A stretch of 64,000 bases of DNA from an uncultured Prevotellaceae bacterium. Lineage in GTDB: Bacteria > Bacteroidota > Bacteroidia > Bacteroidales > Bacteroidaceae. Below the pieces are notes generated by a model that ran no database searches, was not told the origin of the DNA, and saw only the letters and a list, made by a program, of their open reading frames with translations. Of this stretch, positions 1,944 through 23,878 are shown in pieces. A program made the translations under genes and the position numbers. How positions within the stretch are numbered: position 1 is the stretch's first letter; every line of letters starts with the position of its first letter. Location of the stretch: NCBI GenBank assembly GCA_902785945.1, contig CADAAR010000002.1, forward strand, positions 71,743-135,742, written 5' to 3'.

Positions 1944-3415
1944 TTAATACAGACATTGGTAGTTATCCGTTTCTTAAAACCAATCACCTTATCAGACAAA
2001 AATATTTTGGTATTAATTAGATGGCCCTCATTATTAACAACTCTCATATTATTCACTTTCACATTGTTGATATGTCCTATTTTTACATCCTTCCTTGACT
2101 TAGTCCGACACCCATATAGATACAATTCATCAACATTTTCAGGAACAATCACTTTCATATTACTAACAAAGAGATTTGGCCAGTTTTTTTCTTTTAACTC
2201 CTCTCTTTCATTATCTTTACCAAATGGATTACCAACCTGAATTAAATATCTTTGTCCCTGTTTAAACTGCCATGTACAGTCCTTAAAAAAAAGATCAAAT
2301 CCTGTATAGGCATTATACGAGGATTCAAATAGAACTGGCAAGAAATCCATAAATTGGCAATGATCAAACATAACCTTACCATATACAGAGCTAAACTGGT
2401 TATAGAGGTTTCGGAATGTGCAATTCTTAAAGCAGACATTTCTCCCATAGCAATGAATGTCAAAGCGATTAATGTCACAATTCACTAATGTTGCCATATT
2501 CACATTATTATTTCCAAACACCCCCCAGTTCCCGTTTCCGGTCAAATGATCAAACGATACATTCCACACATTATTCATAGAGATGCCATACCCAAATTTA
2601 CTATTCTGAGAATATGTCCTATTAATCGTGACATCTTTTACCCTGATATTGGTACAATTCGTAATACTAATAGCCGCATCACCAAAGAGATTCCCTCCTG
2701 ATGGCGTATTGATAGTAACGTTTTGTATCTCTATATCATTTTGATTCTCTATGGAAAATACATTGGTTATATATATCGAAGCCGCATCGCGGTTAATCGT
2801 CAAGTTCTTAATCTTCTTAACGTTCTTAGTTATCTCACATCGTGAGAACTTGGGCTTTGAACTTGCTGTCCCATACGATGACACTACTTTATTCTTTATT
2901 TGACCATCTTTCACTAATAAGAGATCTTTTCGTGTATGTCCATAATTGTAACCAATCCTATTTTTCACCCAGGGTTCTTGGTCCTCAATGATAATAAGAT
3001 AATCTCGATGCCTATCGGGGATATTTCCTTTGACGATTTGATTCCACGTAACATCCAACGGCTCTGTCTGTTGCGTCATTTGAAATAACACCATTTTTTT
3101 CTGCAGATTCTTGACATTCAAAACCAAGCCACCAAAGTTCGTGTTGTCTGTCAAAGGCAGTGGCTCTGCATCACGTGGAATTTCTATATTGATAGTGTCA
3201 ATACTTGAATAATCCACCCCACAACCCTGTTTTAGAGCATCATTATGTACTTCTTGTAGCACATAATAACGTTGTATGTCTGATATACAATCTTTCAGTC
3301 CATAATCCAATGGCGAGAGTGTTTGATTCCCGCCCCACAGTAATACTGACCGTACTAATAGTATAGCCATTATTATCGCGCGATAAAATGTTCTTTCACT
3401 ATCAACAGATCTCAT
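1940..3415 (-). CDS. Exported right-handed beta-helix (pectin-lyase-like fold) protein
   Basis: N-terminal hydrophobic segment; Asn/Cys/Ile-rich coil repeats (ISITNCTNIRVKDVTI, FKNCTF, FDHCQF, FKDCTW). Confidence 0.6.
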   Translation of the reverse strand: MRSVDSERTFYRAIIMAILLVRSVLLWGGNQTLSPLDYGLKDCISDIQRYYVLQEVHNDALKQGCGVDYSSIDTINIEIPRDAEPLPLTDNTNFGGLVLNVKNLQKKMVLFQMTQQTEPLDVTWNQIVKGNIPDRHRDYLIIIEDQEPWVKNRIGYNYGHTRKDLLLVKDGQIKNKVVSSYGTASSKPKFSRCEITKNVKKIKNLTINRDAASIYITNVFSIENQNDIEIQNVTINTPSGGNLFGDAAISITNCTNIRVKDVTINRTYSQNSKFGYGISMNNVWNVSFDHLTGNGNWGVFGNNNVNMATLVNCDINRFDIHCYGRNVCFKNCTFRNLYNQFSSVYGKVMFDHCQFMDFLPVLFESSYNAYTGFDLFFKDCTWQFKQGQRYLIQVGNPFGKDNEREELKEKNWPNLFVSNMKVIVPENVDELYLYGCRTKSRKDVKIGHINNVKVNNMRVVNNEGHLINTKIFLSDKVIGFKKRITTNVCIK

Positions 3416-4550
3416 TTGATGGATTAAGTCTATTGACCAATGCCTTTTCGTAAATCTTTTTATATCTTCCCGCTATTTTCTCCCAGCGGAACTCATCAAA
3501 GTCAATGATATTATATGGATGATATGCAGATGGCTGTTCAAAATATTTTTTCAGACCATTCTCAATGGATTTTATTGATTGTGGATTAACAGCTTCTCCT
3601 ACACTTCGATCAAACATACCATCAACGCCCTGTCCTCTTGTGTAAAGAATTGCCAAGTTTTGAGATAATGCTTCAATATAGACCAATCCAAACGTTTCAT
3701 GAATGCTCGGCATAGCAAAAATGCTGCATTGTCTGTACAATTCTTTTAGTTTATCTTTGTCACTTATTTGTCCCTGGTAGAATAAGCAATCAGGATGATT
3801 ATCAATCATTCTTAGAACTTCTCTCTCTTTGGATCCCCCTCCCCCAACTAAGTGCAGTCTGAGGTCTGGGAATAATTGTCTGAGATTCAAAACCGCCTTT
3901 ATCAGTCTGACTACATTCTTATTTCTATCAAATCGACCCACATAAATCACATTATAGGAAATAGTCCTTTCAATTCTATTAATATTGTTCAGCCAATAGT
4001 CATCAATTCCATTGGGTTGTAAGACAAACTTATTCTGAATATCAGGAAGGATCCTTCTGATGGCAATATGCTTGCAGAATTTTCCCTGAAGGGCCTTGGA
4101 AATAAAAATGATACGTTGGGCATTTCTCAGAATCTTCAACCCCATCAACCAAGTGTGTGGAGCTATGCCTAAAAAAGTATTGACATCAGTATTCCGAACA
4201 GTAACAATGTAGGGGAGGTTAAATTCTTTGTGTAATTGATAAGCGATGGCTCCATCACTAAACAATGTTGTCGCATGAATTAAATCATAATCCAAAGGAA
4301 TAATCTCCTTTTTTAGTTCAGAATAAACTTTTCTAATCTTGAGGTGATAAAACAATCTATGCCATATTCTTAATATTCCCTTATATATAAAAGATGTATG
4401 TAGGGCTTCAAATTGATTCTTCTCTTCTTTTCCGGTACCTCTATAATATGTAAATATCGTTTGTTCGACATTCAATTCATCCAATCTTTTATACAGATTT
4501 GCATGCACTTTACTTCCGCAGAAGTCATTACAGATATGCAGGATACGCAT
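3402..4550 (-). CDS. Glycosyltransferase family 4
   Basis: YVGRFDRNKN and PSIHETFGLVYIEA (EX7E) motifs. Confidence 0.9.
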   Translation of the reverse strand: MRILHICNDFCGSKVHANLYKRLDELNVEQTIFTYYRGTGKEEKNQFEALHTSFIYKGILRIWHRLFYHLKIRKVYSELKKEIIPLDYDLIHATTLFSDGAIAYQLHKEFNLPYIVTVRNTDVNTFLGIAPHTWLMGLKILRNAQRIIFISKALQGKFCKHIAIRRILPDIQNKFVLQPNGIDDYWLNNINRIERTISYNVIYVGRFDRNKNVVRLIKAVLNLRQLFPDLRLHLVGGGGSKEREVLRMIDNHPDCLFYQGQISDKDKLKELYRQCSIFAMPSIHETFGLVYIEALSQNLAILYTRGQGVDGMFDRSVGEAVNPQSIKSIENGLKKYFEQPSAYHPYNIIDFDEFRWEKIAGRYKKIYEKALVNRLNPSNEIC

Positions 4551-19751: not shown

Positions 19752-20183
19752 TTAGAACTGCCACCAGTGTTTCTTTTGAGGGGAACGGTGGGAATCGAAA
19801 TCTGAGAGAGAGGCTTCTTCGAGGAGGTCTTGCCAGGATTTCTTTTGGCTGATCATGCGGTAGATGGTGCCCCAATCGGGCAGGCCACCGAGGTTACGGT
19901 CGTCGATGAAGATATCGACTTTGAGTTTGCGACTGAAGTGGACGTTACGTTCGACATCCTCCTCGGGGAAGTCGCGATTGACCGCCCAGAACTCCACACC
20001 GCGATCACGGCACCAGGCTATGGCCTCGTCCAGAAGCCTGCCCTGACGGACGGACCATAGTATTAACTGGTGCCGGTCGCGGATAAGCATTTTCAGGGTC
20101 TCGATGGCGAAGGGCTTCTCGGGACCGATATCGGGGTAGCGGTGCTCGACGATGGTACCGTCGAAATCGACTGCGATTGTCAT
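19752..20183 (-). CDS. HAD-superfamily phosphatase-like protein (BT0820-like)
   Basis: AVDFDGT motif I, LWSVR, FIDDRN motif IV. Confidence 0.85.
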   Translation of the reverse strand: MTIAVDFDGTIVEHRYPDIGPEKPFAIETLKMLIRDRHQLILWSVRQGRLLDEAIAWCRDRGVEFWAVNRDFPEEDVERNVHFSRKLKVDIFIDDRNLGGLPDWGTIYRMISQKKSWQDLLEEASLSDFDSHRSPQKKHWWQF

Positions 20184-20201: not shown

Positions 20202-22751
20202 TTAACGTTTGATGGAGTGGTCGTCGGAGGAGCCGTAGTGGGACTGGGCGTAGCGGCCGTAGGAGCCGTAATTGCCGTAGTTGCCATAACCATAACGGCT
20301 ATTGCCGTAGCCGTATTTGCCATAGCCATAACGACCGTATTTGCCGTAATGGCCATAGCCATAGTAGTAGCCATACTTACGCTTCGACATGTCGATGCCG
20401 TTGAGCACGATACAAGGATTGGGCATTTTCTTCTCGTCTGCCAAGGTATTCAGCAGGCCGAAGCTGGACTTGGGCGTATAGTCAGCACGACAGATAAAGA
20501 CGGTGATATCGGCCACACGACCTATCTGCAAGGTATCGCTGACGATGCCCACAGGGGCCGTATCGAGGATGACATAATCGTATTGTTCTCGCAATAGGGT
20601 AAGAACCTTTTCGAAACTCTGTCGCGCCAAGAGTTCCGTGGGATTGGGAGGCGTGGGGCCTGCCAACAGCAGGTCGAGGTTGGGATTAATGCCCGAAGCC
20701 ACTATCTGTTCTTGGAGCATTGGTTGCGTTACCGTATCCTTGGTGAGCAAATGGGTAATACCCTCATGGCGATCTGACATGCCAAAGAGACGACCCAAGG
20801 CGGGTTTGCGGATGTCCAAACCACAGAGGATGACTTTCTTGCCCAAGAGCGCGAATGATACAGCGAGGTTAGCGGCGTTGAAGGTTTTGCCCTCACCAGG
20901 TGAAGAGGAGGTGAAAAGGATGACCTTTTCATTCTGTTTTAACATAAACTGGATATTGGTACGCATGCCACGGAAAATCTCATCAATCTGATTGTTTTTG
21001 TTTTCTTGCACCACAATGCCAGCTGCTGTCTTCACATCATCGCTGGCCACAGGCACGTCGGCCACGATGGGTAATTCGGTAAGCCGAACCACATCCTCGT
21101 GACCTTCTATCTTATAACGGAACAGATTGCGCAAGAAAAGGATGACGGCAGGCAACAGCAAACCAAAGATGATGGCCAGTGCCAAAATAATCATACGACG
21201 CGGACTTACTTGCCCTTCGAACAATGGCTCATCAAGCAACTTGCCCTTATCGGCTGTAGCCGCTAAAGCAATGCTATTCTCCTCACGTTTCTGTAGCAGC
21301 ATGAGATAGACGCTCGACTTTACATCCTGTTGGCGACCAATCTGCGCTAACACGCGTTCCTGAATGGGGGCGGCAGACACCTTGCCCTGATATTTGGCAT
21401 ATTGCGACTGGATACCCTGACGAGCAATGTCTGCTGACTTGCGGGCCTGCAACAGGGCTGCCTGTATGCTGGGCAACATCTCGTTAATGGTAGATGTCAA
21501 AGTCTGCACTTGCGGCGCCTGCTCGCTGACTGCCTTCAACAGGCGATTACGATCCTGGACAGCCTGGTTATAATTATCGATGAGTTTTTTGGAGGCTTCA
21601 TCGGTCAGACCGACATTCGAGGGGATGATATTTTTTGCATTCGCGGGGTTGTTGACATATTCCCGTAGGTAGTCGAGCATCTGAATCTGTGAGTTGGCCT
21701 CTGACAACTGCGCAGAGAACTGGCTTGACATCTGCACGGATGACGAAGCATCAATCGTAGGATCGGTCATCTCATTGCGGCGCTTGAAACTCTCCAAAGC
21801 GCCCTCGGTATTACCCAGTTCCGTATTGATTTTTGCCATGCGCTCGTTGATAAACTCCTCCGTGCGCAGGGCTATTTCGTTTTTGTCGGCATTGGCCTGG
21901 CGGTTGTAACAGAGTGCCAACTGGCTTAAGAAATCAAGGCCGCGCTGCATATTCTTATCTTTCAGCGTCAGTTGTGCTACAGCAGAACCCTGTGCCATAG
22001 CCTCTACTTCTAAGTTTGCCAAGTAACTTGTAGCCACCTGCATAGGCGGGGTAATGGTTATTTCATAGATATTGTTGTCATTCTTCCATTGCTGCCCAAC
22101 ATTGGCAGTGAAGGTCAATACGCCGTAATCCGTCTTGATGGATGTTGGCAACGAGCTAAATTGGTGATTAAATGCTTTTTCTTCTATATCGCCACGCATC
22201 AGGAAACCCTGTACCGTATAAGACTTACCTGTTTTTTTCAGCTCCATCTTGATGCTACGCATACCTGTCAGCAACAGTTTATCGAGGCTGTCAAGTCGAG
22301 TAGGTTCCAGATCAACACTGATTGGCTGTTTTTTATAAATAATATCGTTAATGACCCTGCCCTGGGTACGATACTCCACATAGAGCTTTAAATCCTTTAC
22401 CGCATCACGCATCAACATACGTGAGCGGATGACCTCTATCTCATTGTTAATACCCGATGAATTCGTCAGGTAGCCGAATTCTGCCATTTGTGAGAGTAGA
22501 TCTGAAGCGTCGCTCTTGCTGCTGTTATCCTGTTTAATCAGGATACGTGCTGACATCTGGTAGGTTGGTTCTGTATAGCGCAAATATAGCCAAGCACTAG
22601 CGATAAAGGCGATGAGTGACAACAGGAACCAATGCCAGTTCAACACCAGCATGGCAAACAGATTGGCAAAACTAAAGAATGAGGACTTTTGATCGCTGCC
22701 TTCTATAAGGTCTTCGAGTTCCTCAAGACTGATTTTCTTTTCTTCTATCAT
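20202..22751 (-). CDS. wzc: Wzc chain-length regulator / BY tyrosine kinase
   Basis: Two TM segments, SSPGEGKT Walker A, DIRKP, ILDTAP, C-terminal Tyr cluster; ATG 22751 preferred. Confidence 0.93.
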   Translation of the reverse strand: MIEEKKISLEELEDLIEGSDQKSSFFSFANLFAMLVLNWHWFLLSLIAFIASAWLYLRYTEPTYQMSARILIKQDNSSKSDASDLLSQMAEFGYLTNSSGINNEIEVIRSRMLMRDAVKDLKLYVEYRTQGRVINDIIYKKQPISVDLEPTRLDSLDKLLLTGMRSIKMELKKTGKSYTVQGFLMRGDIEEKAFNHQFSSLPTSIKTDYGVLTFTANVGQQWKNDNNIYEITITPPMQVATSYLANLEVEAMAQGSAVAQLTLKDKNMQRGLDFLSQLALCYNRQANADKNEIALRTEEFINERMAKINTELGNTEGALESFKRRNEMTDPTIDASSSVQMSSQFSAQLSEANSQIQMLDYLREYVNNPANAKNIIPSNVGLTDEASKKLIDNYNQAVQDRNRLLKAVSEQAPQVQTLTSTINEMLPSIQAALLQARKSADIARQGIQSQYAKYQGKVSAAPIQERVLAQIGRQQDVKSSVYLMLLQKREENSIALAATADKGKLLDEPLFEGQVSPRRMIILALAIIFGLLLPAVILFLRNLFRYKIEGHEDVVRLTELPIVADVPVASDDVKTAAGIVVQENKNNQIDEIFRGMRTNIQFMLKQNEKVILFTSSSPGEGKTFNAANLAVSFALLGKKVILCGLDIRKPALGRLFGMSDRHEGITHLLTKDTVTQPMLQEQIVASGINPNLDLLLAGPTPPNPTELLARQSFEKVLTLLREQYDYVILDTAPVGIVSDTLQIGRVADITVFICRADYTPKSSFGLLNTLADEKKMPNPCIVLNGIDMSKRKYGYYYGYGHYGKYGRYGYGKYGYGNSRYGYGNYGNYGSYGRYAQSHYGSSDDHSIKR

Positions 22752-22904
22752 AAACAAAAACACACAAATTTTATGCTAAAATTGCGTAAAAAACACAATC
22801 CTAGCTCGTTACGCCTATTACAAAATATTGATAATCAGGACATTACGTAATTTAAAAGTTTTATATATTAATCACTATGGGATATTTAGTCACCATAGTC
22901 ACTG

Positions 22905-22912
22905 CAAAGGTA
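22905..22912 (-). promoter_or_regulatory. Bacteroidota -7 promoter element upstream of wzc
   Basis: TACCTTTG on the minus strand matches TAnnTTTG. Confidence 0.6.
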
Positions 22913-22958
22913 AGAAAATAAATTGAAAATTGAAAATTGAAAGTTGAAAATTTTATAT

Positions 22959-23837
22959 TTATAGTGTGTTTTTCTTTATTTCGTCGAGTAACTGATCGCG
23001 GAGTTTGCTGGGACGAAGGCGGGAGGCAGCAGTACGGCAACGCTGTAAGGTAGATTCATTGACAGAGCTTAAGACACGCTCTGCTAATAGCAGTGCTAAG
23101 GAGAGTTGAGCTTCGGTGGATGGAATATAGCCTTTACGAGGCAGGAGGCTTTGGTAGAGGCCTTGTATCTCACGATACAGGAGATCCCATTCGTGACGTG
23201 AGGACTCCTTATCTGGTGGGGAGATCAGCATTGTTGTGGAGAGGTGGATGAGTTCTTTGGCATCGCCAAGGATATCGTGACTGGCAGGGCGCTGTTGCGA
23301 GACTACTTCTACAACATCAGGCTTTACGCTGACAGCAGCAACAGCCAGGTCGGGAATGCTGACAACGAGTTGTTTTTCACGCTTTCCCTTCACTTTCACT
23401 AAAACGCCCTCAACACCATCGAATGCACCACCATGGATTCGAATGCGGTCACCTTTTTCCAAGCTGAGCTCGTCTGGACGGAAATACGTCACCGCTCGTT
23501 CTGTCTGCTCTGTGATACGAATGAAGTTTTCCATATCACGGTCGCTGACAACAACTTTTTCACGACGGTTTTTACCCAACACAGGGCGCGTGAGCCAATA
23601 GCATGTCTCACAGAGTTTCATCTTAGCCTCACTGATTTGGTCTTCAGTGCCATAGATAAAGACCAATTCAGTAATGGCTGGCACCAATCGGCGTAACTTA
23701 TGACCTTGCTGCGCCTCCACTTGATAGCGCATAGGCACATAACAACGTAAACCACGACGACGCAAGGCATCACGCACAGCAAGCTCTCTTTTAAAGATGG
23801 CTCGCAGGACGTACCAGTGGATACTATTTGTGTCCAT
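22959..23837 (-). CDS. upxY: UpxY (NusG-family) antiterminator with C-terminal UpxZ-like domain
   Basis: NGN (WYVLR, YVPM, LVFI) and KOW (GDRIRIHGGAFDGVEG); residues ~188-292 contain KGYIPSTEAQLSLALLL and LQRC...LRPSKLRDQLL, resembling UpxZ. Confidence 0.88.
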   Translation of the reverse strand: MDTNSIHWYVLRAIFKRELAVRDALRRRGLRCYVPMRYQVEAQQGHKLRRLVPAITELVFIYGTEDQISEAKMKLCETCYWLTRPVLGKNRREKVVVSDRDMENFIRITEQTERAVTYFRPDELSLEKGDRIRIHGGAFDGVEGVLVKVKGKREKQLVVSIPDLAVAAVSVKPDVVEVVSQQRPASHDILGDAKELIHLSTTMLISPPDKESSRHEWDLLYREIQGLYQSLLPRKGYIPSTEAQLSLALLLAERVLSSVNESTLQRCRTAASRLRPSKLRDQLLDEIKKNTL

Positions 23838-23878
23838 AAAAGAAATCCGCTGCGCAGGGTTTGCGCCTGCGCAGCGGA
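23838..23878 (-). terminator. Intrinsic terminator directly abutting the upxY start codon
   Basis: 13-bp perfect stem tccgctgcgcagg/cctgcgcagcgga, 7-nt loop, tail TTTCTTTT, then ATG. Confidence 0.75.

Follow-up and report, generated by a model that had tools for sequence, protein, structure and literature searches.

In gut Bacteroides, expression of one capsule per cell depends on UpxY and on UpxZ, which blocks recruitment of UpxY to RNA polymerase. To our knowledge, the two have been studied only as separate proteins. Saba et al. 2024 (PMC11685472) report that UpxZ binds UpxY directly, that modelled UpxZ covers the RNA polymerase-binding face of the UpxY NGN domain, and that binding occurs at ~0.9 nM for non-cognate and ~88 nM for cognate pairs, i.e., ~100 times tighter non-cognate binding. 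In the parts accessible to us, none of the four papers searched (PMC11685472, PMC7593976, PMC7819879 and PMC3547664) mentions a natural UpxY-UpxZ fusion.

Here we describe a protein that shares with the UpxY family (UpaY-UphY of B. fragilis) the NGN and KOW domains and an adjoining Wzc/Wza operon, but differs from it by ~110 extra C-terminal residues. It is encoded in the window, i.e., the whole 64,000-nucleotide stretch of DNA that was analysed, which derives from an uncultured Prevotellaceae bacterium.

Results

A UpxY-family protein with a helical C-terminal tail

The host is a rumen Prevotella-like bacterium, and the gene adjoins its capsule locus. It reads as one uninterrupted frame from an ATG start, with no internal stop, and is laid out as follows.

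22959..23837, minus strand: whole gene of the UpxY~UpxZ-like fusion, 292 amino acids plus stop (open reading frame list and translation)
23493..23819, minus strand: NGN, the RNA polymerase-binding module, residues ~7-115 (Pfam NusG 4.6e-09; NF033644 1e-38)
23298..23465, minus strand: KOW domain, residues ~125-180 (NF033644 match extends to residue 175)
22962..23279, minus strand: five-helix domain, very probably homologous to UpxZ, residues 187-292 (equivalent to 4epz residues 2-115, out of 154 in the crystal model)

The first-pass annotation had described complete NGN and KOW domains followed by a helical extension with two motifs, and both descriptions were borne out. NF033644, the NCBIfam UpxY model with a curated cut-off of 100 bits, matched residues 8-175 with 132.9 bits over profile positions 1-163 of 164, which places the protein in the UpxY family by sequence. 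In an AlphaFold2 model built with 82 relatives in the alignment (mean pLDDT 83, pTM 0.72), the NGN superposes on that of RfaH (8pen_P; VIA-align Z 11.4, rmsd 2.3 Å, 100 residues). KOW structures match the model at Z 8-9 (e.g., 4ytl_A, rmsd 1.0 Å over 50 residues), in a region where pLDDT is just 55-74. The extension folds into five helices at residues 189-291 (pLDDT 86-97) and runs to residue 292, with the motifs KGYIPSTEAQLSLALLLA at residues 235-252 and LQRCRTAASRLRPSKLRDQLL at residues 264-284.

The same tail is common to 71 protein clusters (59-100% identity, mostly 285-295 aa) in a collection of 5.8 billion proteins clustered at 90% identity, and is therefore not an artefact. The sole named record among the relatives comes from an uncultured Prevotellaceae MAG (43% identity). 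Database names of fusion proteins in the collection include 'ribosomal protein L24' and 'NusG', and several gene calls begin late (220-272 aa), so that the architecture is hidden in public annotation.

The tail is very probably a UpxZ homolog

Direct searches with single sequences returned little. The tail alone scored 14.4 bits (E 0.05) against the Pfam UpxZ model PF06603, failing its gathering cut-off of 21.2 bits, and the whole protein gave no match. At genome scale, the fusion frame matched with E 0.6, where unrelated frames turn up as well. Such scans are at noise level and are alone insufficient for a UpxZ claim. An ESM Atlas look-up with the tail yielded no usable match, and an exhaustive phmmer search with the tail retrieved NusG-type proteins only, mostly of 333-337 aa and with tails ~45 residues longer; the four short matches begin part-way through the KOW domain, their gene calls being truncated.

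Profile-profile comparison was far more informative. Local hhalign of the long relatives' tails against 57 free UpxZ sequences, drawn from Bacteroides-like genomes and the protein collection, gave 98.3% (E 2e-14; 143 co-linear columns, positions 3-153 of 158), compared with 80.5% (E 1e-05; positions 3-108) for the window's short clade alone, 97.8% for all tails pooled and 0.1-0.5% for four reversed-sequence controls. A second hhalign comparison, using independent alignments (A1 against A4), scored the full-length relatives at 94.8% (E 5.4e-08), with 139 co-linear columns from S186 onwards. The relation holds in both directions: E-values were 1e-05 to 1e-12 for long fusions searched with the UpxZ HMM, and 1e-05 to 1e-13 for free UpxZ searched with the tail HMM. 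Both UpxZ signatures, the acidic EEEA...CLALL.GY helix and the L.R...L..LP.SLLK..LL helix, lie in register with the tail motifs. The first-pass annotation had given these signatures for UpxZ; they are indeed present in the UpxZ consensus and in 4epz, the crystal structure of UpxZ from Bacteroides uniformis.

The structural searches converged on this same entry. Foldseek assigned 4epz a probability of 1.00, and it was the only chain other than NusG, Spt5 or RfaH among the 50 matches listed. VIA-align, where helical bundles may reach a Z of up to ~13 by chance, ranked 4epz first both for the whole fusion model (Z 12.5, rmsd 1.9 Å, 101 residues, 24% identity) and, with a Z of 16.1 that is above this chance level, for P0074, the closest of the long relatives at 333 aa, where 140 of the 154 residues align (chain 2-153). 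Residues 187-292 of the fusion model align to 4epz chain residues 2-115. The next matches of P0074 were the RfaH NGN at Z 11.2 and, as the next helical fold, one at Z ~10.

The sequence evidence does not depend on the structural match. Collectively, these data leave little doubt that the tail is homologous to UpxZ, with which it shares the fold of helices 1-5, the motif register and the position right after the UpxY coding sequence. Unlike UpxZ, it is not a separate protein, falls below the Pfam cut-off and has no equivalent of 4epz residues 116-154. The proposal of a UpxY-UpxZ fusion therefore stands as regards the profile and structure match, but the UpxZ part is incomplete and comprises helices 1-5 only.

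A truncated short form alongside full-length relatives

The seven-helix fold of 4epz is incomplete in the window's domain, in which ~40 C-terminal residues are absent; all seven helices are present in the long sister proteins (329-337 aa). More widely, the long relatives (329-349 aa: P0074, P0077, L090, L075 and L083) have the NGN-KOW-Z order of the window's protein with a complete seven-helix Z part, and the window's clade stops ~40 residues sooner; L075 and L083 belong to a fused clade apart from that of the window. The two lengths are sharply separated: all 63 aligned short-type relatives end 0-19 residues from position 285, and the 19 long-type rows all extend 40-59 residues beyond the short-type end. 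Within the short clade, mean pairwise identity is 78% in the Z part versus 62% in the NGN, which indicates that the truncated domain is under purifying selection rather than decaying. A search for remnants of the missing helices 3' of the stop codon found none (tblastn matches were noise, and the three frames are full of stops), so the truncation is not a recent nonsense mutation. The window's Z domain is a derived, truncated form of UpxZ.

A quick maximum-likelihood tree, computed on the NGN-KOW part, groups P0074 and the short forms in one clade (SH-aLRT 98), which lies beside other long forms with a weaker support of 81. Housekeeping NusG was not found in the window's assembly (88% complete); the tree is for that reason unrooted, and does not give the order of fusion versus fission. 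One metagenomic relative, L090 (57% identity, 329 aa, full-length tail), conserves the synteny of the window, from a large surface-protein gene through the fusion to wzc. In L090, a 40-codon acidic frame (2807-2929, plus strand) separates the fusion gene from the surface-protein gene (909 aa).

The fusion occurs in few genomes, none of them with a detectable free UpxZ

A survey of long UpxY proteins in 301 sampled genomes of the family recovered UpxZ-tailed forms in five. Three are clear (the window's genome, G660 and G581, with tails at 95-96% against the UpxZ profile) and two are probable, namely G651 (85%) and G607 (58%). G660 and G581 constitute a second supported fused clade. None of 15 other sampled species of the window's genus carries the fusion. 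A 324-aa UpxY of G634 (L085 2663-3637, minus strand) was rejected: its tail scored 0.6% against the UpxZ profile and hence represents a different kind of extension. This 145-aa tail contains a GMNGAS-type Gly/Asn repeat.

UpxZ above the Pfam cut-off was found in 7 of 151 sampled genomes of the window's GTDB family and in 0 of 401 sampled across the order; all significant frames were free-standing, at 124-194 aa. No fusion-bearing genome has a Pfam-detectable free UpxZ. In both G581 and G607, the fusion is accompanied by several plain UpxYs but by no free UpxZ. In G660 and G651, the housekeeping NusG is the only other NusG-family protein detected, at completeness values (88% and 81%, respectively) that could let a further paralog be missed; no target for action in trans was therefore detected there. 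At genome level, a single fusion thus goes with no free UpxZ and with few or no further UpxYs. There are at least two fused clades.

The window's genome conforms to this pattern. The absence of a separate upxZ, claimed earlier for the locus alone, extends to the assembly (88% complete), where searches with PF06603 and with the UpxZ alignment found no free upxZ and the sole PF06603 match, in window and assembly alike, was the fusion frame itself. The assembly encodes one other, plain UpxY, on contig 18 (199 aa, 124 bits), followed directly by Wza and Wzz genes and with no UpxZ there. It belongs to a distant clade, grouped with Bacteroides UpxYs that have Z partners. In this second UpxY locus (L087 2753-5754, minus strand), the Wza-like gene that comes after the UpxY gene appears split into frames of 601 and 176 aa, perhaps through a frameshift or an error in the assembly.

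The fusion gene heads a capsule locus with candidate regulatory elements on both sides

As expected of a UpxY-family member, the fusion gene opens a locus for polysaccharide biosynthesis and export. It is followed, in the same orientation, by genes for Wzc, a small HAD-like protein, Wza, a GT2 glycosyltransferase, a PEP-mutase phosphonate module, a TagF-like protein and a flippase. The elements nearest to the fusion gene are the following.

23838..23878, minus strand: 13-bp GC hairpin with U-run, ending on the base before the ATG (-29.4 kcal/mol, z -5.9)
22905..22912, minus strand: TACCTTTG, a match to the -7 motif TAnnTTTG between the fusion gene and wzc (pattern search)
22793..22849, minus strand: conserved leader block of ~57 nt upstream of wzc (alignment A2 of the window, L090 and L093)
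20202..22751, minus strand: wzc-type gene, the first of the capsule operon, encoding Wzz, GNVR and tyrosine-kinase ATPase domains (Pfam Wzz, GNVR, AAA_31); its ATG at 22751 was set by homology to L090

TAnnTTTG is the -7 promoter motif of Bacteroidota, and the form TAnCTTTGCA is invariant in three relatives. The leader block stands out by long runs of invariant columns within a spacer that has otherwise diverged between the window, L090 and L093, and it is a candidate site for antiterminator recruitment. The block also includes GGCGTAACGAGC, which resembles the RfaH ops element of E. coli. With a promoter-like TACCTTTG and the leader block lying after the fusion gene, the capsule operon may start 3' of its regulator gene. 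In this the fusion is unlike UpxY, for which such elements precede the gene, and the regulator gene here may not be part of the operon under its control.

A hairpin occupies the same place before the start codon in L090 (2959-2990), L092 (734-759) and L093 (908-943), with unrelated stem sequences. According to Saba et al. 2024 (PMC11685472), ops pause hairpins of B. fragilis likewise lie just upstream of upxY, the class-2 start codon being at +9. By this likeness, the strong hairpin of the window may be a site of pausing and recruitment as well as a terminator, that is, an ops-type pause hairpin instead of or besides the terminator of the upstream lipoprotein gene.

Two further features were noted in the surroundings. 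Tandem TTTTCAA-type heptamers follow the stop codon of the fusion gene (~22918-22950, minus strand), and a similar run occurs just before wzc in L090 (~4298-4330). In addition, a small protein starting M(T/I)IAVDFDGTIVEHRYP, with no Pfam match (window 19752-20183, minus strand; L075 2614-3090; L086 4217-4681), is found again next to UpxY genes in several genomes; its gene follows wzc in the window and comes directly after the fusion gene in G660.

Discussion

Masking of the protein's own NGN is the tentatively preferred role of the tail

The account that best fits the data overall, to which we give somewhat less than even credence, is that of a locus-specific UpxY antiterminator of the adjacent Wzc/Wza operon with a UpxZ-derived, self-masking tail. 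The fusion protein, a UpxY-family paralog of NusG, would serve as antiterminator of the neighbouring capsule operon, while its tethered Z-like domain would cover in cis the polymerase-binding surface of its own NGN. Such an autoinhibited factor would open, much as RfaH does, only at its cognate leader site. In addition, the plain UpxY of contig 18 may be a target of the Z-like domain in trans.

The central step, autoinhibition of the NGN in cis with relief at the cognate site, we regard as possible but not yet probable. With a covalent tether, the local concentration is higher by orders of magnitude, and even cognate-level affinity should then suffice for the self-masked state; it is on this ground that we favour action in cis. 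The occurrence of the fusion in G660 and G651, where no other specialised UpxY was detected, supports it. Two models reach pTM values of 0.72 and 0.71 despite a loosely placed KOW domain, which hints that NGN and Z part are positioned relative to each other. A complex prediction of NGN (1-118) with tail (185-292) scored 0.01 and speaks neither for nor against binding. On the other side, the window's domain is without the last two UpxZ helices, a permanently self-inhibited antiterminator needs a release trigger, and the second UpxY of the genome makes a role in trans possible, which counts against action in cis alone.

The likeness to E. coli RfaH concerns the proposed logic only, in which a C-terminal helical element masks the NGN until recruitment at an ops pause. 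In RfaH the mask is the refolded KOW domain itself; the KOW of the fusion is modelled as a normal beta-barrel, and the candidate mask would be an added, unrelated domain. That a UpxZ-derived domain became a built-in lid on the UpxY NGN, giving an RfaH-like switch evolved from an unrelated protein, is a doubtful extension of the argument.

Inhibition in trans and other explanations

The main rival, which we consider unlikely, holds that the tail binds the plain UpxY of contig 18 and not its own NGN, so that expression of one locus silences the other. This would amount to a minimal two-locus hierarchy with an obligate 1:1 stoichiometry. The genome is suited to it, with exactly one further UpxY (124 bits), set next to Wza and Wzz and related to Bacteroides UpxYs that have Z partners, and with no free UpxZ; G581 and G607 are similar in having a fusion plus several plain UpxYs, without a free UpxZ. 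The ~100-fold tighter binding of Bacteroides Z to non-cognate Y, as given in PMC11685472, points the same way. Nevertheless, G660 and G651 have the fusion but no other specialised UpxY, and, given the tether, only a very low cognate affinity would easily prevent occupancy in cis. Roles in cis and in trans are not mutually exclusive and can coexist.

We give still less weight to a re-purposed helical domain, i.e., a UpxZ descendant that would no longer bind the NGN and would contact instead, for example, NusA, a nascent RNA hairpin, the ribosome or the capsule machinery. Its high conservation despite the absence of the last two UpxZ helices, its divergence beyond the reach of the Pfam UpxZ model, and a conservation higher than in the NGN, possibly the mark of an invariant partner instead of this variable domain, are all compatible with a new function. 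However, both UpxZ signature motifs are retained in register, the long relatives keep the complete fold, and none of the results suggests an alternative partner.

An unrelated helical bundle that resembles UpxZ merely in helix arrangement is highly improbable: single-sequence Pfam matches at noise (E 0.05 for the tail, 0.6 genome-wide, where weak matches are common) and a Z of ~13 attainable by helical bundles without kinship would allow it, but profile-profile values of 95-98% over the full length against 0.1-0.5% for reversed controls, the first rank of 4epz for two models (for P0074, with a lead of 5 Z units over the second match and of 6 over the best other helical fold), a structure-based identity of 24% and a location exactly where upxZ normally lies all contradict it.

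Implications for capsule control

The fusion provides a tethered pair for mapping the Y-Z interface, and the short form, truncated in nature, offers a test of which UpxZ helices are important. If the tail does act as a lid on its own NGN, the five-helix version would define the minimal NGN-masking module, and the NusG family may have taken a second, independent route to RfaH-style autoinhibition. As a conserved natural fusion, it means that the Y-Z pair can work, or was re-used, as one polypeptide in Prevotella-like bacteria with few capsule loci.
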